DNA of 63,946 nt, the filler included, from Pseudovirgaria hyperparasitica (lineage: Eukaryota): NCBI GenBank assembly GCA_010093815.1. It is 31 parts of 31 records of this genome, joined end to end, with 100 filler letters (N's around TTAATTAATTAA, not from the genome) between each part and the next. Parts side by side here need not be neighbours in the genome. Positions count along the whole stretch, not along the records: positions 3,468 to 6,771 come from ML996655.1; 30 more parts are not named here. One strand, written 5' to 3'. The notes below the pieces were generated by a model, which saw only the letters and a list, made by a program, of their open reading frames with translations, did no database searches and had not been told where the DNA came from. Shown in pieces: positions 3,468 to 37,374 of this stretch (within the stretch, counting starts at the first letter, position 1; every line of letters begins with the position of its first letter). Made by a program: the position numbers and the translations under genes.

Positions 3468-3562
3468 TAACCCTAACCCTAACCCTAACCCTAACCCTAA
3501 CCCTAACCCTAACCCTAACCCTAACCCTAACCCTAACCCTAACCCTAACCCTAACCCTAACC
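3468..3562 (+). repeat. Telomeric repeat (TAACCC)n, about 16 units, chromosome end
   Basis: Perfect hexamer array at the contig start; TTAGGG is the usual filamentous-ascomycete telomere repeat. Confidence 0.97.
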
Positions 3563-6306
3563 TCCAAGGCACCTTCGCAGAGGGAACCTACACCGAACGT
3601 ATCAACACAATCGAGAAGGAGGTCACAAAGGACATTGCGGCGGACGGACAAGTCCTCCCAAAAGGAGACGGGTCTTTCGCGTCTGGCACATTGCCTATAT
3701 GGCTGGTCGCAGACCAAAAAGCCTTCAAAACCAATGGCACTCGGTACCCTGCCCGGGCCGTTGCACTGGCTTTTGCCCTGGTATCACGAGAAACAGCCAA
3801 GCGCTTCAAAGCCTTGACTCTTGCCCACGACAAGGATGGAGATGTGAACATGGATGACTCGCAAGAGAAGTCTGATATCATCAAGTCCCTCGTCATCCAA
3901 GAGATGCGAAAACAAGGTTTCATGGGAAAACAGCAAGGTCAGCTGCGTGCTCTTCTAGACACGTTCTCACCTCACGCTAACGGATCACCCAGGAAAAAAT
4001 TCGCCTCGGACTCAGTCCAAAGCGTCCCCACCCAAGAGAAAAGCCGCGAAACGAACATCAGGTCCTGCAAAGGGCTCGAAGGTCAACAAGTCTCGCGGAA
4101 AAGGAAAAGGGAATGGGAAGAAGAAGTCTCAAAAGAAGTAGACAGATTAGACTCTATTTTTCAAACAAGTCTAGCGGGTCGTGGTCGGGCGGGCCGGGGA
4201 TCGCAGGCAGAGCCAAGGGCTACGCTTCGAAACCTGCGTGCATCGCCAACCCCGAGTGGATCGCGAGTAGAGCAAAGGGATGCGCGACGAAGCTCGCGTG
4301 TACCTCCAACTACTTTGCCTTCCCGACTCCCCTCCTTTGTATCTGTCCATCCTCGTTCTCTGCTGCGTTCAATCACAGACGACGGTGTACACTTCATTGA
4401 GAAACATTCGGATCTCTTTCTTTCTGTATCAGACATAGCTAGAAAAAGAATAATTACACTCTACACTCCCGCGTACCTGCTGGATGAAGCCCATGACTTC
4501 GCCAGCGGCGTGTTCCTAGGGCCGGGTGTGACTGTCCCCAGACATGTCGAGCATGCAATCGCGCTTAACGCGAAGTTCATTCTCCATCATAAACCGAATT
4601 TCTTGAAGTTGCCTGAAGCCTGGAAACAGCTTCAACGAAGTGTCCGCATTCGCTGGCACTTCCGCAACTCAGACAAACCGTCGAACAAGTTCTACGTCCC
4701 CAAACCGACGTGGGAACCACCTGCAGACCAATGGGATCCGATCATTGAAAAAGGGCTCGAAAGAGGCAAGGACTTACTGCTCCAACAAGCAGAAGCCCTA
4801 ACCCTCTCAGACACCCGAAGGCCTAATCCAGACCTAAAAATGATCGGCGAGTTCCTCACAGATGGAAAGTTCCTGGTCAAACTCACAGACAAAAATCTGG
4901 GACTTGCAATGATTCAGAAAACTTGGTATGTCGAGCACTGCAAACGCATGCTACTTAATAAAGATGTCTACAATGAGATCTGCAAGGAAGACATAGACTA
5001 CTATCGCACGGAAGTTCTGAAAAGAATCAGACACCTCATCGACCTTGGTATTGCGGAAGGTTCAACCGCTGAATACCTACTCTCGTCAGAAAATGACAAA
5101 GGCGTCCCAGTCTTCCATGCTATCCCCAAGGTACATAAGAAGAACTGGACATTACGCCCGATCATTCCCAGTCACTCATGGGTCACGAGAAGATGTTCAG
5201 AGGTCTCTGATCATATTCTCCGCATGGCACTCACACGAACGGCTCCTTGGGTCGTTGAATCGACCAAAGAGCTGATTGCCAAGCTAGAGACAAAGTCAAT
5301 TCTGAGATCGGACAATGTGTGGCTCTGCACCGGTGACGTGGAGAGCTTCTACACCAATGTCCCGCTCCAGGAAACTGTACAAATTATCCGTGACATGCAG
5401 TTCCCTGAAATGATTGACGGTATCAACGCTCGACGCATCCATCAACTGTTGGAAATTGTCATGAGCGTTAACTGCTTCGAGTTCGATGGCAAGTTCTACC
5501 AGCAAACCTCAGGTGTCGCCATGGGTACTTCGTGCGCCCCGTCATTCGCAAACCTGAGTCTTGCCTCAAAAGAATCTCCATATCTCCGTGCATCAAACGA
5601 AGAAGGCTTGCTCTTCTTTGCGCGATACATGGACGATGTTTTTGTCATCTTCAAAGGCCCGAAGACAGCCTGTGAGATGTGGCTCAATGGACTGAGCCAG
5701 AGCGTGAAACCTTATCACACCTCATGGGAAATTAATTCATCTCGTATACCGACCGCGTTCTTAGACGCGGAGTTCTTCTTTGAACAAGGTTTCGGAGCAC
5801 TGGGGTTACAAACACGTGCTTTTCGGAAACGAATGAATAAACATCACTATATTCCCTGGTCGTCTGCTCACCCCCTTACGGTGAAACGTGCTTTCGTTAA
5901 AGCAGAAATGACTCGCTTCATGGTTCTCTCGTCTTCAAGGCGGCTGTTCGAGGAACGGCTTCAAGAGTTCCATCAAGCATTGCGACGGCGTGGATACCCG
6001 TCGGACAGGCTTCAGTTGTGGAAAGGATTGGTACGATATGACGACCGACGGGCTGTCCTCTTCAAGCATAAGACACCCGCCGCAGGTCTACCACTCATGC
6101 TACCATCTTCATACGACGAATACTAGGAATACATTGATGTCCAGGCTGTGCTTTCAAAGATGATGGAACAATGGAACCGACACGAGGAACCCATTCCCGA
6201 GTCGCTCAAAGGTCCACTCATCAAATCACTGAAACGCACAGAGAATATGTTTAACAAATTCTCTGCGTGGAACAAAGCAGTTCTGAAGGAGGGAACCGAC
6301 GAGTAG
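3563..6306 (+). CDS. Penelope-like ORF1-RT reading frame (no start codon; premature TAG at 6124-6126, frame continues to TAG 6304-6306)
   Basis: Frame is open from the telomere junction. PLE RT motifs: LTDKNLGL, FHAIPKVHK..LRPII, TGDVESFYTNVP, YQQTSGVAMGTSCAPSFANL, RYMDDVF, FLD, YIPWSSAHP, RGYP. A further 59 codons follow the internal stop (EYIDV...SLKRTENMFNKFSAWNK...TDE*). Confidence 0.9.
3938..3992 (+). other. Predicted 55-nt spliceosomal intron in the PLE
   Basis: CAAG|GTCAGC donor, GCTAAC branch site, CAG acceptor. Removal shifts the frame to a K/R/G-rich tail ending at TAG 4139-4141. Confidence 0.7.
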
Positions 6307-6871
6307 TGTGAGCTGTGGCTGCCGCGAAACTCGGGGACCTCCCTCACGAATCTCCACCCTGGAACAGGTCTCGGTTAGGAGTGGTGGCACGACATGCCGA
6401 CCAGATAGGATCAAGCTTACTACCCCACCCTATCTCCTAACCCTAACCCTGAATCGCGAGCGTTTATTCGCTCATAAAAAAGGATCACTTGTGCGCGGTC
6501 ATACGTTGTGGTGCGGCTTCGGCCCTTTGGCGCCCAGGACGCAGCCCAGCCATCGGCGTCGGTGCTGTTTAAACACCGCTGCCCGAGGCATGCGCGCGTC
6601 GCGCTGTAGTAGCGCTCGGTGTTTGGGCGTGCCGATACCGGTGGGTGGGCCCTGGTGCGTTACCGCACGGCCCGTGGCGTGTGCTTTGCGCGCAAGCCTG
6701 CATCCTTGGACGGAAAAATGTGACATGCCAGCATTCACAGCGATTCTCGGCCAGAATGTGACCAGGTGACTNNNNNNNNNNNNNNNNNNNNNNNNNNNNN
6801 NNNNNNNNNNNNNNNTTAATTAATTAANNNNNNNNNNNNNNNNNNNNNNNNNNNNNNNNNNNNNNNNNNNN

Positions 6872-9800
6872 ATAGGGAAAAACTTCCTTATATCTATAAC
6901 TATATCTCGTTAAACCTCTATTTCGTCTTAAGTATATAGCTATAGGGTACGCCTATTAGTCTATAGCCTATATTACCGTTATTTTACCCTTAGGTAGTAC
7001 GTATAGATACGGAGGTTATTAGTTAAGGGCTACCCTCAACTAATAATCGGGGTTCTCCCAGGGTTCTTCCAGTATATATCGGGTTACTACCAGCGTATAC
7101 CGGGTCTCTTCCGGTATATATTTCTAGGTACACTAGTACTAGAGGAGTAGTAGATATATAAGTATCTATCAGGAGACGTTCTTAGGGTACTTATTAAGCT
7201 ATTATACAATATCTAAAGTCTTTATAACATAGATAAGCTATTACTATTATATATAGAGGTTAGGGTATATAGCTAGATAGTGGCGTATTATACCTCTCTA
7301 GCCGCACGCCTTATACTATAGCGAGGTATTAGGAACACCTCTCTTATAGATATAGTATAGGAGTCCTATAGCGCCCGTTCGGGCTTAGATAAGTATAGAT
7401 ACTTAGGCTTTCATTAGCCCTTTATATATCTATTTACTTAGTTCCTTCTATAGCCCTCGAATCTACTCTAGGTATCTATTCTACTAGAAGGTCTAGTAGG
7501 CACGGAGTACCTCTTTCTACTTATTTTAAGTCCACGACCGTATATTTTTTACGAGTTCTTAAAGGCTCTACTAGTCTAGGAGAGCGTCTAGGTTATCTCG
7601 GACTTCTTATACTACTTAGCTAGAGTCGGCTTCTATTAAGTACCTATACCGTATTCGATTCCAGCCTATATATAGAAGTATACAGTAATATATACTAATT
7701 CATACACGTAGCGCGGCGAAAGTATATTCTACATTTTCTATACATTCCTATACTTATTATTTAGTAAAGTATACTACCCTCTATATCTAGTAGAAGTTAT
7801 ATATACTTATAACGTCTATCTCGCGTCGTAGTAGTACCGTATTAGTAGCTTTATATACACCTAATATAAGACGGAGTATACGGTTCTATATAGATTCGAG
7901 CTTTATTTACCTAGTCTATATAAGGGCCGTATACTAGTACTCGTGTCCGTACGTAAAGGCGGGTCGTACTATAGATATATATAGCTAGCGTGCCTTATCC
8001 CGGGCGGTTCCCTATATAGAGGCTATAATCTATTATATAGTAGCTTCTACCCGGAGGGCCCTAGAGACGGCGTATACTACTTATAGTCCCTATTTAAGCT
8101 TACTATCTAGTATAACTCCAAGCGCGCATATACTTTATACTAGTAGTTCGTTAAATGCGTCGATTCAGGGGCGTCATTCGCCTTCCCTAGTTATCTATTT
8201 CCCTTAATAATTAATAAAGTATATAAGCTAGTATTTCTCTAGGGCGAACTTTACTCCATAGCGTTTTACCTACTAGAGACACCTCTTATAGTTCTATTCT
8301 AGTCGTCTATATATTCGGTTAGTATTATTATTAATAGCTAGAAGGTATATATTATCGGCGTATCCGACTACCTCTATATACTTTATTCCTTAAAGAAGGT
8401 CTACTATAAAGAAGAGGAATAGAATCGGAGAGATAGTGCTCCCTTATAGGATGCCGCATACCATCTCTTTATATTCACTCTAGTACCTAGAGATATATAT
8501 CTAAGTTATTCTTCCTATAAGGAATAACTATATAAAGCGTATAATCCATTCTAGTATTCATCTTATCCAGAGGTTATAAATAAGTCTTATATAGTTTACC
8601 TTATTAAACGCTCCGGCCATATCGAGGGAGAGGAGCGATACTACCCGTCCCTATTTCTATACGGCCTAGACGACTTTAATAATATATTAGATAGCTATTA
8701 TTAGGGAGCTATCTACCTTTACCTTCTAGTTCAGAGGGAGGAGATTATATTCCTATACCGCGGTACTTATCTTCTTCGCTATCATAGCCTCTAGTATCTT
8801 ACCTAGGTAGGAGAGAAGGGCGATTAGTCTCTATTCCTTTAGGGAGTTAGGGCTCTTTCCTAGTTTTGGGAGTATAATAGTATAGGCGACTTAGAAGCTC
8901 TAGAGGTGGTACCCCTACGTAACGTATACTTAGAATATATAAGTAATAAGCGGTAGGGTTGCTTTTATAGTACTTTTTAGACATTAATTTAGAATTCTAT
9001 CTAGTCCGGGTGCTTTATTATTTAGGAGTATCTTAATAATATTAAGTATATCCTCCTCTATAACTTCTTCGGGGATATCTACCGTATATAGATATTCGGC
9101 GCCGTGAACGTCTAATAGATCTACTAGTTCCGGGAGAGGGAATATGGCCTCCTATAGGGCCTTAGTTTTCTTAAGGCCTATAGAGTATATTCTCCCCTAA
9201 TATATTAGGGGAGGTATAAGTAGCGGGGGTGTCGGAGTATCTACGCCCTTAGCCCATTTCGCCATGCGCTATAGCTCTATTATATATCGTGTCTATTAAC
9301 TAGTAATTATATACTACTATTTACGCCTTTTATTACGGAGGACTTTATCGCGTTATTATATTACTTCCTTCTATTCTTTCTATGACTCGGGTGTTCTCGT
9401 ACGGTATACGCGTCTATATAGCCTTTAGGCGTCTTATCTACTTTCCCGTACTTAAGGAATCCCCTTTACTTCTAGGGGCCGGTATATTCGGTATAGTACG
9501 TGTTTATTTCTTATATTCTAGTATATTTATAGGAGTATCTATACGGCCTAGTCTATAGCTAGGTTATTAGATATATTAACTATAGAGGGATCTAGAATCG
9601 CCGATTCTAGGTCCTTTAGGTACTTTTCCTAGTTAGTATCCTTCTATATCTATTGTCCCTATTATTTATTCGGGGTATATACGTTTATTACGGTTTCTAT
9701 ATATTCATGGTTAGAATCCGTCTATACCTAGCCTAGGCGGTAGTATTAGATCTAGTAACTAATATACTCCGTGGCGAAGGTAAGGTTAAGCGTGAACCCG

Positions 9801-10109
9801 TCTTCGTTCTATTTATATTTTTTCTATATAACTTATTCTATAGGTATAAGTAGATATAGAAAGTCGTGGTAGCGGGTACGTAGTTCCCTTACTCTAAGTT
9901 CTTCCCTAACTACGGCTAGGTCTCTCTACTATTAGTAGTAGAGGTTAAAGTCTCCTAGGAGGATATATTACTCTAGTTCCGTAGTACCCTTAAGTATCTC
10001 GTCTAGTATAAGTATACGTTATTAGTTATATATATTATATATATATAGGGGGCCTATATCTATTTATAGGTATAGTATTATCCTAAGGTTATCGCGCTCG
10101 GTATACGAC
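6872..10109 (-). mobile_element. RIP-degraded Tad1-like LINE (EN-RT-3'UTR)
   Basis: Extreme TpA excess. Minus-strand relics DMAGAFNKV, GIL*GSTISPIL, VGYADN (from YADD). Related copies elsewhere in the window. Confidence 0.88.
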
Positions 10110-11204: not shown

Positions 11205-12313
11205 ATGAGCTCCCGTGGCTCAATCGATGATGGCTGTGGTGGCGAGGATGCTTCTACTCCACTCCTCCCTCGATTGCTCCCCGCTTTGGGGGGTCATGGA
11301 AGTCGAGGTCCCAGCATTCGACTCTCGTCTGCACCGCCCAAAAGGATAGGAAACCCTATGGCGTGCGGCCCCTGTAAAGCCAGGAAGTCGCGGGTATGTT
11401 ACCATCGAGCTTTGACGACGGACGCCTCTAATATGTGAGGCGGGTGCTAGTGCGATGGAATTCGGCCAGTGTGTACAAGATGCCAGAAGAAGAACACCGG
11501 TTGTCAGTATGAGTTGCGAGCCGGTGTTTCTCGTCAAGTCGCCTTGAAGATCTTTAACGTTGATCTGAAGCGTGAGAACACCGACTTGAGAGAGCTTGTA
11601 TTACTCCTGAAGACGAAGAGTGAAGATGAAGCAAAAGCAATACTCAATATGATCAGATCCCACGACGATCCTCTCAGTGTTATCGAGAAGCTTCGACAAC
11701 ATAAACTGCCTTTCGCTTGGTCCGACACGCCGGGCCAGGACTCTGATAAGGCTGACGAGAAAGTCATCAAGAGTGCGATCCGGGTCCCTGCCCAGCCGTG
11801 GACAAGTGTGGCGACCGACGAAGTGGTCTCGGAGCTGATCACTGCCTGGTTCGCTTGGGAAGACACGACACTGTTTTCGTATATCACACTAGATCTTTTC
11901 GTAGCAGACATGAAAGCAAGCGATCCAGAGCGTGCGACATTTTGCTCTCCCTTCCTCGTCAATGCCATCTGTGCTGCCAAAGCCATCAGTTGCATCGCAC
12001 GAGCTCATAGAATGAGAAGTGTCCACAAGGCCTTCAAGTCCATGGACAAGCCTGCCGCAGACGCAACGTCTGAAAGTACATGGGAGCTAAGCGAACGATT
12101 CCTCGCCGCTGTGAAGGAGCACTTGGAGCTTCAGTGCGGACGGGCTTGGCTTCCTACCATCCACGGACTGTATTGTCTTTTTCAGCACGCATCTATCTCA
12201 GGAGTAGATCGGGCAGGCTAGTTCTATCGACTTGCTGCGATCGACATGATAAGCCGTCTCAACCTCACAAAGGTAGACCACGTGCTCAAAAGGGACATAT
12301 TGCATACTGCTAA
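11205..12313 (+). pseudogene. Zn(II)2Cys6 transcription factor (NirA-like), truncated, with premature stop
   Basis: ACGPCKARKSR | intron 11394-11450 (GTATGT..CTAAT..TAG) | CDGIRPVCTRCQKKNTGCQY, then VPAQPWTSVATDEVVSELI and FCSPFLVNAICA. TAG at 12219 lies inside a continuing frame. Confidence 0.85.
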
Positions 12314-13444: not shown

Positions 13445-14623
13445 CTATGTCCGTGGATTCGCTCCATAAACGATGAAGGAATGATTGAGCCTTTGCGTGC
13501 CACGGACATACTGCACAGCACCTGGGACAGCCATCCAAAAACGCATGTCTTCGCCTCGCTTGAAGTGCTCCGAGATATGCGTAACACGGTGCTTCCATGA
13601 GTTCAGAAGATAACCACAAATACCGCACCAGTAACTGGGTTCGATCTGGGGCTTTGAAAATCGCGACAAGATATCCTCGTTCGGATTGAAAATCTTATGG
13701 CAATTTTCAATATGCTTAATGAATTTGTCTTTCCTGGTGAACGTACGTCTTGATTCTTCCTTCTTGATACACTGACACAGGTCGTGTGACTGTAGATGCA
13801 AAGACGTGGGGCTGTTCATTCCACCAAATACACACTGAGTCTTCTTCGCGATTGATGGAGATGTTACAGCCTTTTCGGGCATGCAGATCCACTGCTGCAA
13901 GCGGAGATGTATAGTTTGCTCGTGTCGCTCCCAGTCATACCTGCGCTTGAAGTCCTGCACACAGAAAGTGCACTGGAAGATGTGATCGGGAGAAGACGGT
14001 GTCCGGAGTAGCGATGCGGTAAGATCAGGCTGAATGCGCCGCGACTTCTTCAGTCTACGCTTCTTCGGTGGTCTGTAGTTCTGGATGGGGTCGAGATTCG
14101 ACTGTGGAGAACACAAGTCGGAATTTTTGCCAAGCTTTTTGACACTCTTGGTACCTGCAGATGCTTTCGCTTGTCCTCGACAGAGCTTCCTCGCACGAGC
14201 ATTAGCGAAATATACTTGTACTTGACGGACACTTAGATCGGTGAGCGCAGCAAGCTCTTCACTCTCCTGCCTAGTAAGATCTGGGTCTGCGAGCCGCTGC
14301 GTGAATTGTTGAGCAAGTATAGCCTGCGCGTTGTGCGGAAAGGTCTTGCAATCTTTCGCAATCTTACAAGACTGACTCTCCTTTGTCGTGTCTCCCACAG
14401 GCGTCTGCCTTATTAGATATGAAGAATATCGAGGCTTTGAAAGGTTGGCAGCGGAGTACTCTATTCTTTCGAGTGACTGCGGTGCGGTCGAATGGACAGT
14501 CTCGCATGAGCCATACGCGGGAGATATATGATATCCATACCAGTGGTCGTGACTCCAGCATGAAGCGCTTTGTTGCGAGCATGGTTGCGTGTTTGTCTCC
14601 ATTGGCCTACATAAGTCCGTCAT
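13445..14623 (-). CDS. Homeobox plus C2H2 zinc-finger transcription factor (degenerate homeodomain)
   Basis: LAALTDLSVRQVQVYFANARARK recognition helix; FQCTFCVQDFKRRYDWERHEQTIH; RTFTRKDKFIKHIENCH; WCGICG...RVTHISEHF. Confidence 0.88.
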   Translation of the reverse strand: MTDLCRPMETNTQPCSQQSASCWSHDHWYGYHISPAYGSCETVHSTAPQSLERIEYSAANLSKPRYSSYLIRQTPVGDTTKESQSCKIAKDCKTFPHNAQAILAQQFTQRLADPDLTRQESEELAALTDLSVRQVQVYFANARARKLCRGQAKASAGTKSVKKLGKNSDLCSPQSNLDPIQNYRPPKKRRLKKSRRIQPDLTASLLRTPSSPDHIFQCTFCVQDFKRRYDWERHEQTIHLRLQQWICMPEKAVTSPSIAKKTQCVFGGMNSPTSLHLQSHDLCQCIKKEESRRTFTRKDKFIKHIENCHKIFNPNEDILSRFSKPQIEPSYWCGICGYLLNSWKHRVTHISEHFKRGEDMRFWMAVPGAVQYVRGTQRLNHSFIVYGANPRT

Positions 14624-16942
14624 GGTTTAGTAGCATAATTTGCGTGCCGTAGTATCGTTACTGACTGGGCTTGGTCTGCACTCGTGTTAGACTCGAGGAG
14701 AGGCTCCTGCGAGCCTGATAGCACATATATACTGTCCCAGTATAGGCTTATTCATCTGCAATGAGTCAAGAGGCTTTGGCAGAGCCATGGCTGAACAAAG
14801 CGGCACTATAGGAAAAGAGTATTATCGTTAGTACAGCCAAGGCGACTGACATGGTTTGGCTCAGATATAGATTCCGAGATAGCGTAGCAGAATCTATGGC
14901 TCAGCATGGCTTAGCTGATTGGAGAGCGGCGATGACCTGGTGGATCTCGTGGCTCAGATACTTGTTACCATCTTGCAAGCTTGCTTGAGACATGATGCTC
15001 GTGTAGCGCAGTCGTTTCGCTAGGTGTGAATGGTGCAGATTGAGTCTTCTGTTACAGTGCATACTGGCGCCATTGTTTACCTGCCAAGGTCTTGGCAGTC
15101 TAGAATCCTGGACCAGTGCTGACCAGCTTAATGAGTAGATCTTGTCACAGTGCCGTAAAATAATGAAGACTCGCCCAGAAGTCGGTCCACTGGTTGCCTA
15201 CTTACTGAGCCTTACAGAGACGCTTCCTGCGCGCCCTGTAGCTCTCATCACTGCAGGGATCAATCAACTTATACCTAGTACGATACAACAGCGAAATGGC
15301 ACACAGCGTCGGCATGTGGGGCCTGCGCCTTTTCAGACTGCCTCTTCCGGACATCAGTCTTTTCGAAACTTAGTATTTAAAGCACTCTTAGTTGTACTTA
15401 CGCCCGGCAGAATTCTGGAGGATACTGACTTTCTAGCGTCCGCCTTGACAGCAAGATGCAGTCGCAAACGCCCCTCGAACCATTGTCAGCGACTTCCCTA
15501 GGAGCAGAAACAGAGTGTGAAGTCCTCTCAGATGACCCCTATGCTGTCTACATACCCCAGCAGCTCAATTATTCCGGGTTGTCTTCTAGGACTTCGAACG
15601 AGGTCTGTGGCTCCTACAATTTCGGGGACCCAGGCGTATACTTGGATCAAGCAGACGGCTGAGGACTTCCTTCGCACGACCGGTAACGGAATCTCAGACG
15701 TCGGATGATCTGTCTATCTCGCACACGCACAAAAGTCTTCTCAATGCTATATCTAGAGGCTAACATGACGGCCCGGTTCGGACCTCGGACCGGATCTTGT
15801 CGCTTTCACTCCGTGCCTCTCCTATTTATAGCTGCTTTTCTACTATACTTAAGGGGCTTTCACTGTCGGTATGCCTAGAACATGATGATAAGAAGTTGAG
15901 CATTCTTTCCATGCCAATGGACTCAGGAGTCCAAGCGGTGAACCCCCGAAATGGATCGAATATTACTAAAAGATTGACTAAAAGATAATCCCTTACGGAA
16001 TGAAACTTGTAGTATAGAAAACATACCTTAAAGTATCCAAACTAATATGCTGAGCCATGACCGTACTGAGTCGGTATCACTGATTCGAGATCCATGCCCT
16101 TACTGAGCCATGACCAGTCTCTATCCAGCCTGTTCGGTCTATTTCGAATCCTCGCTTTCGGTTGTAATGATGCTACTTTTAGATTGCGTGATTGAATCTA
16201 AGCAATCGTCGTGCTGAGCTTTGAAGTAGGTGGAGCATACAATCANNNNNNNNNNNNNNNNNNNNNNNNNNNNNNNNNNNNNNNNNNNNTTAATTAATTA
16301 ANNNNNNNNNNNNNNNNNNNNNNNNNNNNNNNNNNNNNNNNNNNNGAGCCAGGCGCATCGCCCAGTGCGTCCCGGACACCATGGCAGCCGCGTGGCCTCA
16401 AGAGATGGTGTGGCCCATCGCGCTCCGCGAGCACGCAACTCACTCCTCGCTCCCTGATGTTCCACCACTGACAATACGCGCTGCCAGCACTAACCTCCAT
16501 CAGTATTGAGGCACTATGTACGACCAGTGGCTGGCCTGAAGCCTCCACTCGAACAGGGTGACTGATTGCCATGGGACCCATGCAACCCTTTGCTCCGAGA
16601 GCACAACACACATCTCAAAGTTCAAAGCGATTCCGCGAACTGATCCCGAGGATGGATTCAGTAGCTTTAAGCCTTGTATATTTCTCTGCAGGCCATTGTT
16701 CTTATATCTATAGGCTGAAGCCGTTGTGAGCATAACCAAGGAGTCAGGTGAGATTACCGTCCGTTATCTGACGGAGATGACGATATAATTTATAGGTTGT
16801 GTACTCTTCACCTTCCAGGATTATAAGAACCCCTCCGATTAATCTGAAACGCGGTACCACACCGGGTCACGGACTGATCTGGGAGGCAAACTGCCATTTT
16901 GGTGCTATTCCACGGCGCATGATATGCGTCTTGGAAAATGTA

Positions 16943-24825: not shown

Positions 24826-26960
24826 TAATAGAGGTTAAAGTCTCCTAGGAGGATATATTATCCTAGCTCGGTAGTGCCCTTAAGTATGTTATCCGCCTAA
24901 AGTAATCGGTTCTAATTATATATATTATATATATAGAGGGGTCCGATATTCGTCTAGAGGTGTAGTATTATCCGGAGGTTATCCTATTTAGTATACGACT
25001 ATAATAAGAGTAGAATAGACTTATAGATATAGAAGAGGACTCTCCTCTCCGGTCCTAGGGGGTGTATTATATAATATTCTAGGTGTGTTATTGGTTTGTT
25101 CGTCTGGTAGTGTTTATATAGCTCCTATATGGCGAGTATTATAGCTCCGGTCTCCTCGAGGAGTATCGCCTAGTTCTTACGTTTATACTATACGTTTATC
25201 TATATAATTAGGAGTGCGTCTTAGTCTCTCATTAGGTGCTAGGGAATATATAGGCCTATATATTTATTCCGCTAAGATACGACTATCCTCGTGCGGCGGC
25301 GGCCTTAGTAATTCCTTAGGGCCGTCCTATTATTAGCTTTCTTAGGACGGTTTACTATTTCTAACCGCTTCCTCGTAAGGAGGTAGTCTATAGTAGTAGT
25401 ATTATAGTAGAGAGAGGAACGGAGGTAGGTCGTATCATTTATAGCTACCTTACTCCCTTTATCCGGATTAAGTAGATATATTCGGTAACCTATTTATGTT
25501 TCGCGCACGTAGCCGACTACGACGGGTACTTACCGTCGTAGTTAGAGTACTTTACCGTGTCCCTATCTCTCTAGCCCTCTTCTCGTGTCCCGTGGGGGCA
25601 CTCCTAGGTACTATATTCTTATTAATACTACCTATACCTAGTCTTTTAGGAGTACCGCTATACCGTGTACCCGTATCTCTAATAGTTAAAGTACTATATT
25701 ATCGCCTATACTCTATCCCATGGTTCCGCTATAAGAAGCTCCCCTTCCGCTAGGAATCCCTCTTACGTAATTTAATACGCGAGGGCGGGGTCCTTAAGCT
25801 CTACTATTATAGTAGAGTATACCTTTAATCTGGTTTTAATCTCTTATATATTCTTCTACTATGCTCTTATAATCTTAATCCCTAGGTATTTTTGCTCGTT
25901 TAACTATTCTATCTACGTGATATTCTCTTCTCTAATAACCTATCCGCTTATAGATATAGAGTATATCTATATTAGGTATATGGCCGCCCTAATAGAGGCG
26001 CCTAGGAAGATACTACTAATCGCGTTTAGATCGCGCGAGATGGTCTACTACGCGATATTCGTTATCGTGGTAAGTACTACTCCTCCTAGCGTAAGTTTAG
26101 TAGCGACGACGTTTAACTATATTCCCTTTTATTTATTAATCTTACTTACTATGTCCTTTAGGGATGCTCGCTAGACCTATACTAGGGTATCCTTATCCTA
26201 GATTACGACGTATATACTATACACTACGTTACCGGTCCGGGGGGCCCGTAGTATAGCCTCCGGTGTTACTACTATTTATATCTATATACTAGGGCGCTTA
26301 CCTTAAGTAAGTTCCTCCTAGATTCTACGTAGGCTAGCCTCTATTCGGTCGAGTCTACCCTCCGGTCCTCCTAGTTATATCTTCTTCTCCTCCTCCGTAA
26401 TTCCCTTTAGATTTTAGATAAGATTCTAGAATATATATAGAAGGGTCTTCTAGCCCTCTCCGGCTTCCTTCTCTATACGTACTACCTAGTAGTTAATATA
26501 ATCTAGAAGGGTTTCCCCTCTTAGGGTCCCCTTTATTCCGTCTATCTATAGCGGCGTGCGCCTTTAGGTGTATTCTACGTTTTAGATAGGTATATAGCTA
26601 CCCTTAGTAATGTCGCTATATAGCCTTTTCTATCGTACTAGTAGGGGTATATCTAGTATATACCGGGGTATATCGGTGCCTAAGGCCGCCATATTTATTA
26701 GTTAAGGGCTACCCTTAACTAATAAAAGGGGGTCGGCGTATTAGTATTCTAGTAGCGTAGTCCGTGCCTCTATCTCCGTGAGGATTTTAAGAGGGTATAT
26801 ATATATCTTTATACGGCGATAACGTCTTGGTTTCGACGCTGCACGTACGTGTGTATAGTAGTAGTTAGTATACTCGGTATACTCTATTAATTAAGGTATG
26901 TATCTCGCTATATTACCCCGAATGGACCAAGTTAGCCTCTTAGGGATGTAAAAGAAGTTT
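24826..26960 (-). mobile_element. RIP-degraded Tad1-like LINE, 5' part (5'UTR, gag-like ORF1, start of endonuclease)
   Basis: I*YFNY*RYG (from IQCFNCQRYG zinc knuckle). The contig start is homologous to the EN region at 9936-10109. Confidence 0.8.
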
Positions 26961-27413
26961 TTTTTTTACTTAGGTATTATACGAAAGTATATATTATTAT
27001 TCTATATATATTTATATATATAGATACCTTATAAAACTTAAGGGGGTGTATAAACTTAACCTCTACTATATCTAATAAGTTTATATAAGGTATTTCCTTA
27101 TTAGGAATAGCTTAATATTAGTAATCGATATTACTAATATTATCTACTTATATATATAAACACTCTATACTCTTATAGAAGTTTCTAGAACCCTCTAGAA
27201 ACTTCTAGAGGTCTTTAGAAACACGAACTTCTATAGAGTTCTATTAGGTTCTACTATAGAGTCTATAAGTTCTATAGAGTTCTACTCTACTCTATTCTAT
27301 TCTAAGGAAACTANNNNNNNNNNNNNNNNNNNNNNNNNNNNNNNNNNNNNNNNNNNNTTAATTAATTAANNNNNNNNNNNNNNNNNNNNNNNNNNNNNNN
27401 NNNNNNNNNNNNN

Positions 27414-29695
27414 ACCTATAGAATAAGTTATATAGAAAAAACATAAATAGGACGAAGACGGGTCTACGCTTAACCTTACCTTCGCTACGGAGCATATTAG
27501 TTACCGGATCTAATACTACCGCCTAGGCTAGGTATAGACGGATTCCGACTATAAATATATAGAAACCGTAATAAACGTGTATACCCCGAATAAATAATAG
27601 GGATAATAGATATAGAAGGACACCGACTAGGAAAAGTACCTAAAGGACCTGGAATCAGCGATCCTAGATCCCTCTATAGTCGATATATCTAACGACCTAG
27701 CTATAGACCAGGCCGTATAGATACTCCTATAAACATACTAGAATACGAGAAATAAACACGTACTATACCGAATATACCGGCCCCCGGAAGTAAAGGGGAT
27801 TCCTTAAGTACGGGAAAGTAGATAAGACGCCCGAAGACTATATAGACGCGTATACTATATAAGAATACCTAAGTCGTAGAAAGAATAGAAGAAAGCAATA
27901 TAATAACGCGATAAAGTCCTCCGTAACGAAAGGCGTAAATAGTAGTATATAATTACTAGTTAATAGACACGATACGTAATAGGGCTATAGCGTATAGCGA
28001 AATAGGCTAAGGGCGTAGACACTCCGACACCCCTACTACTTATGCCTCCCCTAATATATTAGGGGAGAATATACTCTACGGGCCTTAAGAAAACTAAGGC
28101 CCTACGGGAGGCTATATTCCCTCTCCCGGAACTAGTAGACCTATTAGACGTTCACGGCGCCGAATATCTATACGCGGTAGATATCCCCGAAGAAGTTACG
28201 GAGGAGGATATACTTAACATTATTAAGATACTTCTAAATAATAAAGCACCCGGACTAGATAGAATTCTAAATCGATACCTAAAAAGTACTATAAAAGCGA
28301 CTCTACCGCTTATTACTCGTATATTCTAAGCATACGTTATGTAGGGGTACTACCTCTAGAGCTTCCGAGTCGCCTATACTATTATACTCCCGAAGCTAGA
28401 AAAGAGCTCTAACTCCCTAAAGGGATAGAGACTAATCGCCCTTCTCTTCTACCTAGGTAAGATACTAGAGGCTATGATAGTGAAGAAGATAAGTACCGTA
28501 GTATAGAAATATAATCTCCTCTCTCTAAACTAGAAGGTAAAGGTAGATAGCTCCCTAATAATAGCTATCTAATATATTATTAAAGTCGTCTAGGCCGCAT
28601 AGAAATAGGGACGGGTAGTATCGCTCCTCTCCCTCGATATGGCCGGAGCGTTTAATAAGGTAAACTATATAAGACTTATTTATAACCTCCGGATAAGACG
28701 AATACTAGAATAGATTATACGCTTTATATAGTTATTCCTTATAGGAAGAATAACTTAGATATATATCCCTAGGTACTAGAGCGAATATAAAGAGACGGTA
28801 TACGGCATTCTATAAGGGAGCACTATCTCTCCGATTCTATTCCTCTTCTTTACGGTAGACCTTCTTTAAGGAATAAAGTATATAGAGGTAGTCGGATACG
28901 CCGATAATACATACCTCCTAGCCATTAATAATAATACTAATAGAACGTGTAGACAACTAGAATAGAACTATAAGAGGTGCCTCTAGTAGGTAAAACGCTA
29001 CGGAGTAAAGTTCGCCCTGGAGAAATACTAACTTATATACTTTATTAATCGTTAAGGGAAATAGATAACTAGGGAAGGCGAACGACGCCCCCGAATTAAC
29101 GCATTTAATAAACTACTAGTATAAAGTATACACGCGCTCGGAGTTATACTAGATAGCAAGCTTAAATGGGGACCATAAGTAGTATACGCCGTCTCTAGGG
29201 CCCTCTAGGTAGAAGCCGCTATATAACGGATTATAGCCTCTATATAGGGAACCGCCCGGGATAAGGCACGCTAGCTATATATATCTATGGTACGACCCGC
29301 CTTTACGTACGGACACGAGTACTAGTACACGGCCCTTATATAGACTAGGCGAATAAAGCTCGAATCTATATAGAACCGTATACTCCGTCTTATATTAGGC
29401 GTATATAAAGCTACTAACACGGTACTACTACGACGAGAGATAGACGTTATAAGTATATATAACTTCTACTAGACATAGAGGGTAGTATACTTTACTAAAT
29501 AATAAGTATAGGAACGTATAGAAAATATAGAATATACTTTCGCCGCGCTACGTATATGAATTAGTATATATTACCGCGTACTCCTATATATAGGCCGGAA
29601 TTAAATACGGTATAGGTACTTAATAGAAGCCGACTCTAGCTAAGTAGTATAAGAAGTCCGAGATAACCCGGACGCTCTCCTAGACTAGTAGAGCC
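27414..29695 (+). mobile_element. RIP-degraded Tad1-like LINE ORF2
   Basis: Reverse-complement copy of about 7565-9845; DMAGAFNK and VGYADN relics. Confidence 0.88.
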
Positions 29696-32043: not shown

Positions 32044-34091
32044 ATATAGAAGAAAGGGTTTAGTTCTTCGATTAAGGACTATTTTTATATTAATCTATCT
32101 CTTACCGGGTACTTCTTAGTTAATAGGGTACCTATTATTATATATACCGGAACCATTTACTCGTCTATTAAGAGTACGTAAATAAGAGTTATTTATACGT
32201 TTTTAGAGTCGTGTATAAATAGATATTTATATATTATAGATATTCTATTTATAATATTCTATTTACGAAGGTCTATTTATAATTTTAAGGGTCCCGAGTA
32301 TAAAGGTATAGTTTCCCTTCTATTTTTCTAGACCTTAGTAATCTTATTCTTCTCCGTTATAAGATTAGATTCTCTCTTCTTATCTAGTTAGAGTCTAGTT
32401 ACTAATACTTAGGTTCTATAGATAAATAATATTATCTACTACTAGGGCTACGCCCTAGCTAGCGAAGACTATACTAACTAAGTAGTAAGTATTAGACTCC
32501 GTGTTATTTACGTCGGGCTCTACTAATTTACTTAGTTAAACTAAAGTTACTTCTATACTTATTATACTCTAAGAAGGGTAAATTACTAGAATCTATAAGC
32601 TAACTTAGAAACTCTTATTATAATAACCGCTAACCGAGTATTTTAGACTAGAGATTACTTATATTACTTATATAGTATAGACTCGGTCGGCTAATACAAG
32701 GGCGTAAGTTCTTTTCCCTTCTAGTTCTATGTTTTAACGCCTAGCTAATAGTTAGTTTAGACTAGATATCTATAAGAACCTCGCCTAGGTTCTAAAAGCC
32801 GTAAAGGCTTTATAGTCTTTATAAGTAGCTAGTCTACTTCCTATATAAGACTATTTAGACTCTCTAGATAAATAATTACTAACTACGCTTTTAGTACTAT
32901 CGCCTTCTAGATAACTACTTAGATAACTAATATAGTAGTCTAGTAGAGTTAAACGTAAGTTTAATCCTAGACTCTAGTTAAATTCTCTTACTAACCTTCT
33001 ATTATAGTATAGGCGGTATTCCTCTAGTATTAGTATTAGGGCTCTATTAGGCTAACCTATAGGCCTATTAGAATGAGCCGGCCTCTAGGCCTTTTCCTTT
33101 AGTATTTAATTCTCTCTCTCTTTTTTTTATTCTTTTCTTTCTATAGAATGAATTTCTTTTTTATTCTCTCTTAAGACTATATAGTCTTCCTTTTCTTTAT
33201 CTATATATTCTATAGATTACTAGATAGATATCTTCTTTTTCTTTATAGTCTACTACTCTAGTAGACCGTTATTCGTCTTAGTAGATCTAAACTTCTATTT
33301 AAACTTATCTAATATAGTAGTATCCGTTAGGTTTACTAAGGGTTTCTATATTAGATTATAGTATCTAGTCTATTTTACTAGGACTTCTCTTCTTTATTCT
33401 CGCTCTTTATTTCTAGTATATAGTATCTCTTTAACTTACTACTCTTTATATATCTTAATAAGTATAGAGTCTAGTTATTTATTATTAGTCTTCTATCTAG
33501 TAGATAGAGGGTCTTTACTAGCTAGTCTAAGTAGATCTATATAGAATACTAGATAGATATTACTAGGAAGCCTCCTTAGTCTAACGGACACTAGTAATAG
33601 AACTTTATCTATAGTATATTTTACGTGCTTTAAGTCTAGGTTCTTCTTTAGTTAACTTATTATATAGTTTCTTAAATTAAGCTATACTTTATCTTCTATA
33701 TAGTATACTAGTACTAGAGTTTACTTTCTATTCGTGGACTTCTCTTACTTTTAGACGGCCTCTACTATATTCGCTTAATATAGCTTAGTAATATTCTTTA
33801 TCTTTTTTATAAAGGTTTCTACTCTTTATTTAGTAGGGAGTAAGAAACTAGAGTTAGCTTCTATCTATAGAGATATAGAGGATAGTAGATTATATCTATA
33901 GATAGTAAAGAATAGGCTTATTTCTAGCCCTACTTAGTAGCGCGTGTTTAGTACTAGTTATATAGTTAGAAGCTAGGTTTTCTAATTAGACTATTTCTAA
34001 TTAATAAAGTTTCGTAAGTAGCTCTATATCTTCTAGTTTATTCTCTCTAGGCCTCTATCTATTTAAGGATAGTATATAGAGCTTAGTCTTT
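32044..34091 (-). mobile_element. Heavily RIP-degraded retroelement, probably Ty1/Copia gag-protease-integrase
   Basis: Very strong TpA bias. YVLLIDE-like integrase relic near 32160-32180, downstream of a possible zinc-knuckle relic. Confidence 0.45.
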
Positions 34092-36300: not shown

Positions 36301-37360
36301 AAACTACTAGAGCTATAGAACGTATACGTACGTCTAGAGGTCTAGAAGATTCCTATTATTAATTAAGAGAAGGATCTAGAATGTATAAGGAGGAATATAT
36401 AAGGAACGGTCTCTCTATGTATTTAGTTCTCTCTCTATCTAGTCTTTACTTTAAGAATTATACTATATTCTTATTATCTTTAAGCTATACTCCGCCGATC
36501 CATTTATTATATAATAGTCTATTACGGCTAGATCCTATTATATAACTCTATTTAGATATATATTCCTTATATAAGGAATATTATATATCTATTTATACCT
36601 GCCCTTTTCACAAGAATAACCTAGATACCCTTCTAGACTAATAGAGCCTTCGAGAGCTCGGACAAAGTATATAGTTATAGATCTAAGATAAGTAGAAAGA
36701 GACACTCCGGGCCTAGTAGGCCTCCTAGTAGAATAGATACCTAGAGTAGATCCGAGGACTATAGAAGGAGCTAAGTAAATAGATATATAAAGGGCTTATA
36801 AAGGCCTAGGTATCTATACTCCTCTAAGCCCGAATGGGCGCTATAGAACTTCTATACTACCTCTATAAGAGAGGCGTCCCCGACGTATCTCTATGGTATA
36901 AGGTATATAGCCGGAGAGGTATAATACGCTACTATCTTATAATATGCTCTAATCTTTACACGTAAAGGTAGAAGCTTATCTATATAATAAGAACCTCTAA
37001 TATCATACGATGGCTTAATAAGTACTCTAAGGACGTCGCCCGGTAGATAATTATACACCTACCACTCCTCTAATTCTAGTGGACCCGGAAATATATGCCG
37101 GAAGAACCCCTTAACTAATAACTCCCGCACCTACACGTGCTATCTAAGGGTAAAATAACGGTAACACAGGCTGTAGGCTAATAGGTGTACCCTATAGCTA
37201 TATACTTAAGAAGAAATAAAGGTTTAACGAGATGTAATTATCGATATAAGGAAGTTTTCCCCTCTTGGGTTTCTTCTTATATAGTAGCTTAGACTAGAGG
37301 AGGCATAGGCCTGTAGAGTACTACTCTACCTAGTTATATAATATTATTATTATTATTATT
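36301..37360 (+). mobile_element. 3' end of a RIP-degraded LINE with (ATT)n tail
   Basis: Homologous to the reverse complement of 6872-7500; ends in ATTATTATT at 37343-37360. Confidence 0.75.
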
Positions 37361-37374
37361 ATACTAGATATAAG

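Follow-up and report, generated by a model that had tools for sequence, protein, structure and literature searches.

A candidate frame-switching intron between ORF1 and RT in a family of telomere-attaching, Coprina-like PLEs

A family of Coprina-like PLEs probably carries a retained intron that switches the reading frame, giving rise to two RNAs, one coding for ORF1 with a tail and the other for an ORF1-RT fusion. Telomerase has its closest relatives in PLEs, which are unusual among retroelements in that they keep introns. For the telomere-attaching PLEs of filamentous ascomycetes, we lean towards a model in which the intron acts as a nuclear switch. The spliced RNA would be a dedicated messenger for a Gag-like ORF1 protein, whose functional basic tail would be produced only after splicing, and the unspliced RNA would serve as messenger for RT and also as template for transposition. 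A retained intron of this kind would have a readable job, being both spliceable and translatable. If true, it would give a concrete reason for intron-keeping in the PLE class and a testable answer for one large fungal group.

The element and its telomeric context

The window, that is, the whole stretch of 63,946 nucleotides that was analysed, consists of 31 short contigs of Pseudovirgaria hyperparasitica joined by spacers. It contains a single copy of the element, on contig ML996655.1 (positions 3468-6771), and because the window is built of such short contigs, the real context of the element is just 3.3 kb. Judged by its features, this contig carries a dead, 5'-truncated copy of a telomere-attaching, endonuclease-less PLE of the fungal Coprina-like kind. 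The coordinates of its features are summarized in Table 1.

Table 1 Features of the element copy in the window
Feature	Positions	Strand	Description
Telomere tract (TAACCC)15	3468..3557	+	C-rich strand in the element sense; terminal; caps the truncated 5' end, abutting ORF1
ORF1 exon 1, 5'-truncated	3562..3937	+	Last ~125 residues of a ~260-residue helical protein, from translation and alignment
ORF1-linker-RT fusion, unspliced frame	3562..6123	+	854 codons in the truncated copy
Phase-1, 55-nt intron of spliceosomal type (candidate)	3938..3992	+	5' site GTCAGC, branch GCTAAC at 3976-3981, 3' site CAG
Dual-coding stretch (predicted)	3993..4141	+	Spliced, Lys/Gly-rich ORF1 tail; unspliced, ORF1-RT linker with RKRKRE motif
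Conserved RT region	4378..6123	+	RT anchor begins at 4378; no endonuclease domain after RT
In-frame TAG	6124..6126	+	Replaces a nearly invariant Trp; the frame afterwards runs on to 6306
Conserved 3'-terminal RNA element	6383..6450	+	Terminates in CCTAACCCTAACCCT at 6436-6450

The RT is of the PLE type, a class read here from motifs, and its layout of DKN, RT motifs 1-7 and thumb agrees with the description in the available part of PMC13159263. The DKN motif of the N-terminal PLE motifs is located at 4888-4896 and belongs to TDKNLG (T442 D443 K444 N445 L446 G447), which is invariant in 37 aligned sequences. The RVT_1 core matches Pfam at ~5275-5679 (residues 572-706, E 2.9e-10). No GIY-YIG endonuclease was found: the ORF stops ~60 codons past the thumb without any later Pfam match, and in a precomputed list PF01541 is assigned to only one of 103 homologues, the distant P0102. 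Pfam searches also gave no matches to LTR, protease, integrase or RNase H, and the element resembles Ty1/Copia in its working without being a member of that group. The fungal hosts named for some of the matches are consistent with the Coprina clade.

A single ORF is the family norm. Thirty-six of the 103 database matches cover at least 98% of the fusion as one protein (888-1077 aa), and the ORF1 and RT anchors are in the same frame in 38 of 39 related loci, which were picked irrespective of ORF length. The ORF1 of the window copy is without its first ~130 residues; its residue 1 corresponds to residue 133-135 of full-length relatives, and it aligns to their residues ~133-260. The AlphaFold model of a full-length relative, P0112, is all-helical over residues 15-254 with a mean pLDDT of 81. 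A Foldseek search of this fold against the PDB returned nothing at E <= 0.001, the best hits being generic long-helix proteins (E 0.32), and a Pfam search of ORF1 with or without the tail gave no match.

Frame 1 of the window copy is open from the telomere repeats to 6123 and contains no stop even across the intron. Unspliced ORF1 therefore continues directly into RT, as the preliminary description of this DNA had claimed. The TAG that follows falls at alignment column 1144, which is Trp in at least 90% of 37 sequences. The window copy, truncated and interrupted by one in-frame stop, is thus a dead relic, so that the mechanism is assigned to the family and not to this copy. The proposal that this very telomeric PLE switches frames hence stands for its family but not for the copy on which it was made.

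The element has the hallmarks of a terminal position. It is 5'-truncated, capped by telomere repeats in the sense orientation and followed at its 3' end by a short reverse-complement telomere stretch. Telomere repeats are seen on the C-strand in 24 of 73 related loci and on the G-strand in none of the 73. The terminal CCTAACCCTAACCCT is a telomere-complementary tail that would anneal to the G-strand overhang. The 3' element that contains it is 81-96% identical at the nucleotide level to 16 loci whose proteins are just ~45-58% identical; L045 gives only a weak partial match (41 nt, E 0.007). It can form a 5-bp helix, GGTGG/CCACC, with compensatory changes, one pair being GC in 8 and AU in 6 sequences and another UA in 13 and CG in 1. 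Despite this covarying helix, a hammerhead core is not readable in the 3' element, and neither a hammerhead ribozyme nor any other known RNA was matched by Rfam at E <= 1 on the 3304-nt contig, although fungal variants may escape the models.

An intron conserved in phase, length and reading frame

A 55-nt intron of the form GT..GCTAAC..CAG, free of stops in the RT frame, had been described in the window, and it is seen there. Its borders are G/GTCAGC at 3937/3938 and CAG/G at 3990-3992/3993. The 5' splice site follows the first base of a codon (phase 1), base 3937 being the first base of the split junction codon, and the length equals 3 x 18 + 1 nt. The 5' site GTCAGC is a weak match.

The intron was searched for in a comparison set of 39 related metagenome loci by a strict finder, GTNNG...CTRAY...AG. 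A phase-1, 3n+1, stop-free intron is present 14-41 nt past the ORF1 anchor in 33 of these loci, which represent 22 lineages at less than 80% identity, some of them down to ~25%. Only seven lengths occur (46, 49, 52, 55, 58, 61 and 64 nt), every one of them 3n+1. The GT-AG borders and the fungus-typical length of 46-64 nt are those of a spliceosomal intron. The 5' sites of the lineages read GTACGT, GTAAGT, GTATGN, GTGAGT or GTCAGN, and the branch, NCTRAY, lies 7-13 nt from the 3' site in 20 of the 22 lineages. Six loci are missed by the strict finder. Three of these (L024, L027 and L039) are degraded copies; the branch of L031 reads TTAAC, L029 resembles a GC-AG variant and the candidate in L062 is phase-0 and 73 nt long.

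No RT-frame stop occurs in the introns of any of the 22 lineages, whereas the other two frames are free of stops in only 6 and 4 of them. Multiplied together, the shuffle probabilities come to 8.7e-7; because the 22 lineages are related by descent, this and the other p-values exaggerate independence. Elsewhere, 64,253 nt of related coding sequence contain 46 candidate 5' sites (0.72 per kb), just 2 of which combine phase 1, 3n+1 length and freedom from stops. The intron pattern thus exceeds chance expectation. Furthermore, the residue encoded at the 5' site differs among loci (Gly, Arg or Ser, i.e. NGT) with the GT constant; because the residue varies while the GT is kept, conservation acts at the nucleotide level. 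Splice signals, 3n+1 length and a stop-free RT frame, which the preliminary description had proposed to look for in homologues, are all kept. The retained form appears to be under selection. Once the unspliced frame is constrained, the 3n+1 length is fixed by descent, and so it is not independent evidence for a selected frameshift.

Two reading frames in the stretch downstream of the intron

Removal of the intron had been predicted to shift the frame into a Lys-rich tail that stops at 4139-4141, and translation agrees. The tail of the window copy (peptide P0001) extends for 48 codons past the split junction Gly codon to the TAG at this position. In the family, the tails are 36-58 residues long, Lys/Gly/Pro-rich, acid-free and disordered, with L019 (18 aa) and L056 (93 aa) as outliers in length. 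The tail stop lies 14 RT-frame codons past the start of RKRKRE in 6 of 11 loci (WIN, L001, L009, L044, L045 and L054) and 16-20 codons past the motif match in 4 others; L011 has no motif. The conservation of the basic tail, to be looked for in homologues, hence extends to its length, composition and stop position. The count of stop-free tails is true by construction and was not used as evidence. Tail length was likewise dropped as evidence, since in this purine-rich stretch long open runs are also common in the third frame.

The tail frame leaves a mark on the codons of the RT frame. Asp and Glu occur 16 times in the tail frame against 74 ± 6.8 expected from synonymous resampling (reached in 0 of 2000 and 0 of 1000 resamplings), whereas the control regions are not depleted (24 against 25.7 expected before the intron, 289 against 285 in the RT body). 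RT-frame codons for Lys, Glu and Gln end in A in 91% of cases in the overlap and in 64% in the RT body (p 9e-29), and those for Arg and Gly in 11% and 68%, respectively (p 3e-36). The xAA and xGA biases, opposite in direction, are consistent with a tail in which AAR (Lys) and GGN (Gly) are favoured while GAN (Asp/Glu) is avoided. Identity between lineages is higher in the tail frame (0.38, 0.39 and 0.32) than in the RT frame of the same bases (0.31, 0.31 and 0.20), with the values inflated by the low complexity of the tails. The third positions of the overlap are strongly purine-rich, with T at 6% compared with 25%. Deviations from the synonymous null occur in the third frame as well, with 8 stops against 46.7 expected and 299 Lys plus Arg against 212, so that the tail composition comes in part from base composition, and only the opposite xAA and xGA biases seem to argue specifically for the tail frame. 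On these grounds the spliced frame appears to be under selection as well, and the claim that 3993-4141 codes in two frames is borne out in that the tail frame constrains the synonymous sites of the RT frame, within a generally purine-rich region.

We consider it unlikely that the splicing is real but not adaptive, i.e. a host-side or accidental inactivation of RT or an RNA mark, with the tail as a by-product of a purine-rich linker or of an exonic splicing enhancer. The overlap is indeed purine-rich in all frames, the third frame shares the shortage of stops and the excess of Lys/Arg, and purine-rich exon sequence beside a weak intron is a known enhancer arrangement. However, a plain purine or GAA-repeat bias explains neither the avoidance of a final A by Arg/Gly codons together with its preference by Lys/Glu/Gln codons nor the near-absence of Asp/Glu in the tail frame only (in the third frame 68 are observed and 62.7 expected). 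The conserved place of the tail stop also speaks against it, as does the persistence of the splice signals in 22 lineages, where harmful signals would be expected to have decayed.

Spliced-form proteins in public data

The two products proposed in the preliminary description were ORF1 with its tail and ORF1-RT, and proteins equal to the spliced product are found in public sets. Seven proteins consist exactly of ORF1 and the tail joined at the predicted junction, and each of them aligns over this junction with the conceptual spliced products of the loci studied. Five are plain ORF calls on contigs, from JGI (P0112, P0113 and P0116) and Logan (P0117 and P0120), and two are fungal gene models, P0114 of Aulographum hederae and P0119 of Verticillium albo-atrum, which may be ab initio predictions. 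Many other relatives read through, and all of these are database proteins.

Five other database proteins, with jgi, lgn and/or ena as sources, exactly match uninterrupted ORFs on intron-containing contigs, which indicates that those contigs received plain ORF calls. If the calls are plain, the source contigs of the JGI and Logan ORF1-tail proteins should be without the intron. In 4 of 5 cases the spliced-form contigs are short (976-1312 nt), a hint that early termination might make the spliced RNA a subgenomic messenger as well. Because gene callers either read through the intron or predict the short protein only, the annotation of telomeric elements in fungal genomes is inconsistent.

These proteins bear on whether the segment is an intron at all. 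It could be ordinary linker, poorly conserved and intron-like by chance, that is never removed and belongs to a single ORF1-RT polyprotein. Its frame is open everywhere, it sits in a variable, gap-rich linker and the 5' site of the window copy is weak. Nevertheless, GT, the CTRAY branch and AG are kept over 22 lineages while the encoded residues change, the splice pattern is rare elsewhere, codon usage downstream follows the shifted frame and the seven proteins are joined exactly at the junction. We regard this as the least probable of the alternatives, with next to no weight.

Proposed mechanism of frame switching

In the mechanism that we propose, an element of this family encodes one long ORF, ORF1-linker-RT, with a short phase-1, 3n+1 intron directly past ORF1. 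When the intron is retained, the ribosome would translate through it to produce the ORF1-RT fusion, and the intron would have to stay stop-free and to change its length in threes only. New copies would likewise be made from the unspliced RNA, which must serve as their template given that the intron persists in copies. When the intron is removed, the frame would shift by one base and ORF1 would end in a tail read from the frame that overlaps the linker. Because this shifted frame stops at a conserved place, no RT would be made from the spliced RNA. The choice between splicing and retention would thereby determine how much of the transcript goes to ORF1 protein, which would be abundant, and how much to the less frequent enzyme fusion. 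ORF1 would be Gag-like, and its tail may be nucleic-acid-binding or nuclear-targeting. We infer that the two isoforms coexist in one cell and that their ratio sets the ORF1:RT stoichiometry.

No conserved alternative route to RT was seen in an examination of AUG codons in 22 lineages and of slippery heptamers in 6 loci. An RT start at its own downstream AUG would contradict the proposal that only the unspliced RNA makes RT, and no RT-frame AUG past the intron is conserved: 6 of 22 lineages have none, and the positions differ in the others. This result fits the proposal. If splicing were constitutive, ribosomes on the spliced mRNA could still get to RT by a -1 frameshift or by reinitiation. Splicing of the window copy makes GGA AAA AAT, which contains a canonical A_AAA_AAT slippery heptamer at the junction (3994-4000). 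It is in the correct register, and slipping by -1 at this point would restore the RT frame. L001 has A_AAA_AAG 8 nt past the junction, and the available part of Craig et al. 2021 (PMC8557442) states that a frameshift with a pseudoknot can set off the ORF1 of PLEs. However, the heptamer is not conserved among 6 loci: none occurs within 200 nt in L003 and L010, and the rest differ in heptamer and offset. Frameshifting at the junction heptamer was therefore rejected as a family feature. Nor would an intron that is always removed have to avoid RT-frame stops, as this one does in 22 of 22 lineages, or to vary by threes, and constitutive splicing would not require the genomic frames of ORF1 and RT to coincide, as they do in all but one of the 39 loci. 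This makes constitutive splicing very improbable, and alternative retention of the intron is the preferred account of how RT is made.

Comparison with known systems

Retroviruses and LTR elements produce gag-pol by programmed -1 or +1 frameshifting (also summarised in PMC3735527). The outcome would be the same in the window family: one RNA region is used in two frames, with the minority product containing the enzyme. In gag-pol frameshifting, however, the ribosome chooses on one mRNA, whereas in the window family the spliceosome would choose in the nucleus, with the fusion as the unspliced default.

Coprina-type PLEs of fungi, endonuclease-deficient and telomere-associated, were reportedly described by Gladyshev and Arkhipova in 2007. 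As far as the accessible text of PMC13159263 goes, Coprina-1_Alen of Ascochyta lentis has in common with the window element a fungal host, a chromosome-end site (in the window, a telomere-capped contig), ORFs pointing off the telomere, telomere repeats on both sides and a 5'-truncated copy. Both also have a DKN RT with thumb and no GIY-YIG endonuclease, a helical or coiled-coil N-terminal part and a basic NLS-like motif before RT. Coprina is said in the same text to have typically one ORF, and the A. lentis element itself has two. The accessible passages on Coprina-1_Alen mention no intron, splicing or overlapping frame, whereas the window family has a conserved frame-switching intron and a second overlapping frame. 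A hammerhead motif beside the 3' telomeric stretch is counted among the traits of the Coprina and Athena types but was not detected in the window copy by Rfam.

Athena and other PLEs with retained introns and a separate ORF1 are said to have been described by Arkhipova et al. in 2003. According to the available part of PMC8557442, Athena-type PLEs and the window family share introns kept through retrotransposition, a coiled-coil ORF1 upstream of RT, telomere attachment and the lack of an endonuclease. In that part of Craig et al. 2021, a ribosomal frameshift, accompanied by a pseudoknot, divides ORF1 from RT and the introns are called 'conserved', whereas the window family has one frame and would shift it by splicing. 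No description of a frame-switching intron or of an overlapping tail frame in PLEs was found in the accessible portions of the literature; Gladyshev and Arkhipova 2007 and Arkhipova et al. 2017 may bear on novelty.

Judging from the available parts of PMC3735527 and PMC5580714, BARE1 and copia, with their Gag-only splicing, come closest as a precedent. BARE1 of barley, copia of Drosophila and EVD of Arabidopsis are Ty1/Copia elements that produce a Gag-only mRNA by alternative splicing. As proposed for the window family, a single ORF contains an alternatively spliced intron, and its removal shifts the frame to give the structural protein only. The unspliced RNA is both polyprotein messenger and replication template, and the proposed purpose is an excess of structural over catalytic protein. 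The BARE1 and EVD isoforms have been shown by experiment, whereas those of the window family are predicted from sequence. The three elements have LTRs, a protease, an integrase and VLP-based replication, and the window family belongs to another element class. Furthermore, the BARE1 intron is 104 nt long and is followed by a stop three residues past Gag, as opposed to the conserved basic tail of 36-58 residues over the linker frame. Another difference from BARE1, copia and EVD is that the window family keeps a translatable intron, placed between the ORF1 and the RT of a PLE. If true, splicing-set Gag:Pol stoichiometry would have arisen independently of Copia elements. The window family would then be a clean natural case of two overlapping frames linked by alternative splicing, and PLEs would have converged with Copia on splicing-based control of structural versus catalytic protein.

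The window copy and its intron

The preliminary description placed a frame-switching intron in a Penelope-like element: splicing would give ORF1 with a basic tail, and retention an ORF1-RT fusion. The window consists of 31 short contigs (1.0-3.4 kb; 1003-3367 nt, in falling length order) with spacers N44-TTAATTAATTAA-N44, and because the contigs are separate, adjacent regions are not linked in the genome. The described 55-nt GT..GCTAAC..CAG intron is exact. It is of phase 1 and 3n+1 length, and the translation of the window copy has no RT-frame stop within it. Removal of the intron opens the Lys-rich tail that had been described, with 49 residues (48 codons past the split junction Gly) ending at TAG 4139-4141.

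Features of the element-bearing contig and of other contigs in the window
Feature	Position	Remark
Element-bearing contig	3468-6771	Second of 31
Telomere repeats, (TAACCC)15	3468-3557	Contig start
Open frame 1	3562-6123	854 codons
5' splice site, G/GTCAGC	3937/3938	
Branch, GCTAAC	3976-3981	
3' splice site, CAG/G	3990-3992/3993	
RVT_1 core	Residues 572-706 of frame-1 ORF	Pfam
In-frame TAG	6124-6126	Frame goes on to 6306
CCTAACCCTAACCCT, terminating the 3' untranslated stretch	6436-6450	
ORF with weak fungal Zn2Cys6 cluster match	11451-12218 (+)	Consistent with a fungal genome
ORF with homeodomain and C2H2 finger	13448-14626 (-)	Consistent with a fungal genome
Non-LTR (LINE-like) retrotransposon, open 586-codon fragment	40152-41909 (+)	Separate contig; AP-endonuclease E 3e-17, RVT_1 E 4e-26
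Very AT-rich contigs	6872-10109, 24826-29695, 32044-34091, 36301-38127, 43850-45435	G+C 0.26-0.39, many TA dinucleotides, stops; look like RIP-degraded repeats

The in-frame TAG is the sole stop within a 915-codon frame and replaces a Trp conserved in at least 90% of the 37 relatives in the alignment. The change from TGG to TAG lies in TpG context, the pattern that RIP-type mutation would give. Because full-length relatives start about 130 residues further upstream and have Trp instead of TAG, the window copy is 5'-truncated, stop-bearing and telomere-capped; it is a dead relic. Its sense strand is directed away from the chromosome end, and Pfam detects no endonuclease downstream of its RVT_1 core. 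The copy resembles Coprina-1_Alen, as presented in the available part of PMC13159263, in having the layout of endonuclease-less, telomere-attaching Penelope-like elements. The end of the contig (6451-6771; 321 nt, 61% G+C) shows no similarity to the rest of the window or to any of 72 related metagenome loci, and represents subtelomeric DNA of the host or else the remnant of an unrelated terminal addition.

Conservation of the intron

Used as a protein query, the 854-residue read-through gives 103 matches. Because 36 of these are single proteins of 888-1077 residues spanning at least 98% of the query, a single ORF1-linker-RT frame is the family norm. The named hosts of the relatives belong to several classes of filamentous ascomycetes. 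The linker is variable in the alignment of read-through relatives, and its frame-1 translations recurrently show Gly/Arg/Ser + Met/Lys/Thr, then Thr/Ala-Asp/Asn, then Pro-Arg, residues that would be the translated NGT-ATG/AAG/ACG, RCTRAC and YAG/G.

The DNA of the 72 loci came from a metagenome contig scan, and loci were anchored by profile matches to the ORF1 end and the RT-region start, blind to ORF length. Both anchors are present in 42 sequences, including the window copy; they are ordered in 39, and in the same frame in 38 of the 39. In 33 of the 39 loci, a strict finder (GTNNG, CTRAY, first AG) detects an intron of phase 1 and 3n+1 length, free of stops, at 14-41 nt past the ORF1 anchor. 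The failures are L024, L027 and L039, three degraded copies in which the 5' site is mutated and stops are numerous, L031 with a TTAAC branch, L029, which looks like a GC-AG variant, and the most distant locus, L062, whose candidate is 73 nt long and of phase 0. At <80% identity the 33 loci represent 22 lineages, with identities down to about 25% for some. Elsewhere in the elements the splice pattern is rare: 64,253 nt yield 46 candidate sites, just 2 of which are phase 1, 3n+1 and open.

All 22 lineages have introns that are stop-free in the RT frame, against 6 and 4 in the other two frames, and the joint probability of this is 8.7e-7 when intron interiors are shuffled. Intron lengths are 46, 49, 52, 55, 58, 61 and 64 nt, so that all changes are multiples of three. 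The finder conservation, the RT-frame openness and the 3n+1 lengths indicate that the intron is translated often enough for selection, and it is probably also spliced, because the splice signals persist although the encoded residues change. The features that the preliminary description had proposed to look for in homologues (splice signals, 3n+1 length and an open RT frame) are thus present across the family.

The introns of the 46-49 nt clade (L030, L031, L033, L034, L036, L041) share a conserved internal GGCAAACGCC, translated as Gly-Lys-Arg when the intron is retained. At the intron interior of this clade, read-through identity is 0.44, higher than the 0.31-0.39 of flanking coding sequence. 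This would point to constraint on either the intron-encoded peptide or a splicing-tuning RNA signal.

The shifted frame as a second coding frame

In 31 of 33 loci, conceptual splicing gives a tail 36-58 residues long, in which Lys+Arg make up 31-45% and Asp+Glu 0-9%, as expected from the proposed conservation of the basic tail; L019 (18 residues) and L056 (93 residues) are length outliers, and Asp+Glu are wholly absent in 19 of the 31. Tail length by itself is weak evidence because the third frame is likewise often open there. As a stronger test, a null expectation was obtained by holding the RT-frame protein fixed and redrawing synonymous codons by each element's own usage. The tail frame holds 16 Asp/Glu against 74 +/- 6.8 expected, a value reached by 0 of 2000 and 0 of 1000 redraws. 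Depletion is not found in the RT body (289 vs 285 expected) or over the 40 codons that precede the intron (24 vs 25.7), and is mild in the 40 codons past the tail stop (34 vs 45.3).

Against a tail-specific reading, the third frame of the overlap (3993-4141 in the window) likewise deviates from the null: it has 8 stops vs 46.7 and 299 Lys+Arg vs 212. Together with T-poor third positions (6% vs 25%), this indicates that the overlap is purine-rich as a whole. However, A-ending codons make up 361 of 397 RT-frame Lys/Glu/Gln codons in the overlap (91%, the RT body having 64%; p 9e-29) and 16 of 150 A/G-ending Arg/Gly codons (11% vs 68%; p 3e-36), opposite directions that base composition cannot explain. 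In the tail frame these choices convert Arg/Ser to Lys/Asn and Asp/Glu to Gly, and the tail contains 29% Lys, 16% Gly, 10% Pro and 8% Asn. Between-lineage identities are 0.38, 0.39 and 0.32 in the tail frame, values inflated by low complexity, vs 0.31, 0.31 and 0.20 for the same bases in the RT frame. The tail stop lies 14 RT-frame codons past the start of the linker motif RKRKRE in the window copy and 5 of 10 other loci, among them a clade with just about 30% identity, and 16-20 codons past the motif match in 4 others; L011 lacks the motif. Judged from these sequence patterns, the shifted frame is a real coding frame.

Proteins of the spliced form

ORF1-only searches with one locus and a 17-sequence alignment return 15 rows, or 14 distinct short database proteins (P0106 is in both tables). 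Seven of the 14 are ORF1 directly joined to the basic tail: P0112, P0113 and P0116 (JGI contigs, 1103-1312 nt), P0117 (six Logan contigs, the longest 3760 nt), P0120 (Logan, 976 nt), and the gene models P0114 of Aulographum hederae and P0119 of Verticillium albo-atrum, which may be predictions. All seven, drawn from both major clades, can be aligned with a conceptually spliced L003, L007, L030 or L032 product over the predicted exon-exon junction. P0106, P0108, P0109, P0121 and P0123 are unspliced read-throughs or frameshifted variants. Five database proteins (sources jgi, lgn and/or ena) correspond exactly to ATG-to-stop ORFs of intron-containing contigs, so such contigs got plain ORF calls; by the same reasoning, the five contig-derived ORF1-tail proteins should sit on intron-less contigs.

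The contigs of P0112, P0113, P0116 and P0120 (976-1312 nt) barely exceed the ORF1-tail gene, and that of P0117 is 3760 nt. The spliced RNA may be a short subgenomic messenger ending early, as in Arabidopsis EVD; alternatively, the assemblies may just break there.

The AlphaFold model of P0112 (27 aligned sequences) is of good confidence (mean pLDDT 81), all-helical over residues 15-254 and disordered in the tail (261-311). Foldseek gives no convincing PDB relative of the ORF1 model, and Pfam gives no match in ORF1. From its composition, the tail is guessed to be a nucleic-acid binder or nuclear signal.

Route to RT

Initiation of RT at its own downstream AUG, named at the outset as an alternative, finds no conserved start: between intron and RT region an RT-frame AUG is absent in 6 of 22 lineages and varies in position in the others. 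Splicing of the window copy would form a canonical A_AAA_AAT slippery heptamer (GGA AAA AAT, 3994-4000) in a register that fits a -1 slip into the RT frame. Such a slip is rejected as the family route, any heptamer being missing in 2 of 6 loci and the others having different ones. Because neither AUG nor heptamer is conserved, the unspliced frame is the only conserved route, in line with the claim that only unspliced RNA makes RT. Since copies keep the intron, retroelement biology implies that unspliced RNA must also serve as the reverse-transcription template. Control by intron retention is thus supported at the family level, not from the dead window copy, and we regard a splicing/retention switch as a likely mechanism of the family.

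The 3' element and arrays

The terminal ~70 nt, reaching to telomere-like CCTAACCCTAACCC (6383-6450), are 81-96% identical in nucleotides to L001-L003, L005-L014 and L064, elements whose proteins are merely ~45-58% identical. This 3' element has an invariant, hairpin-like GGCACGA.ATGCC core, shows compensatory changes in a GGTGG/CCACC helix, and has no Rfam match. It probably serves in RT recognition or in telomere annealing, and a fungal variant of a ribozyme may be involved. In L003, L007 and L010 it occurs on both ends of ~3.9-4.0-kb contigs, with a unit of about 3.88 kb in L007; in L005, L046 and L048, also ~3.9-4.0 kb, the ORF1 end lies beyond the RT start. The doubled 3' elements and the order swap indicate that elements lie in head-to-tail arrays or were assembled as circles.

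Comparison with known systems

Penelope-like elements retain introns, the significance of which is called unknown in the available text of Craig et al. 2021, and according to its Fig. 1 legend, a ribosomal frameshift with a pseudoknot can separate off ORF1. Coprina elements are typically single-ORF in the available parts of the A. lentis paper (PMC13159263), which do not mention an intron. A frame-switching intron in these elements was not found in the literature searched, and its novelty is provisional. The closest working precedent is BARE1, in which, according to the accessible text of PMC3735527, a 104-nt intron is removed from about half of the translatable RNA, shifting the frame to a stop three residues past Gag; copia and Arabidopsis EVD are similar in the available part of PMC5580714. 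The present elements differ from these in class. Furthermore, their intron is kept translatable, and the shifted frame would encode a conserved tail overlapping the linker frame.
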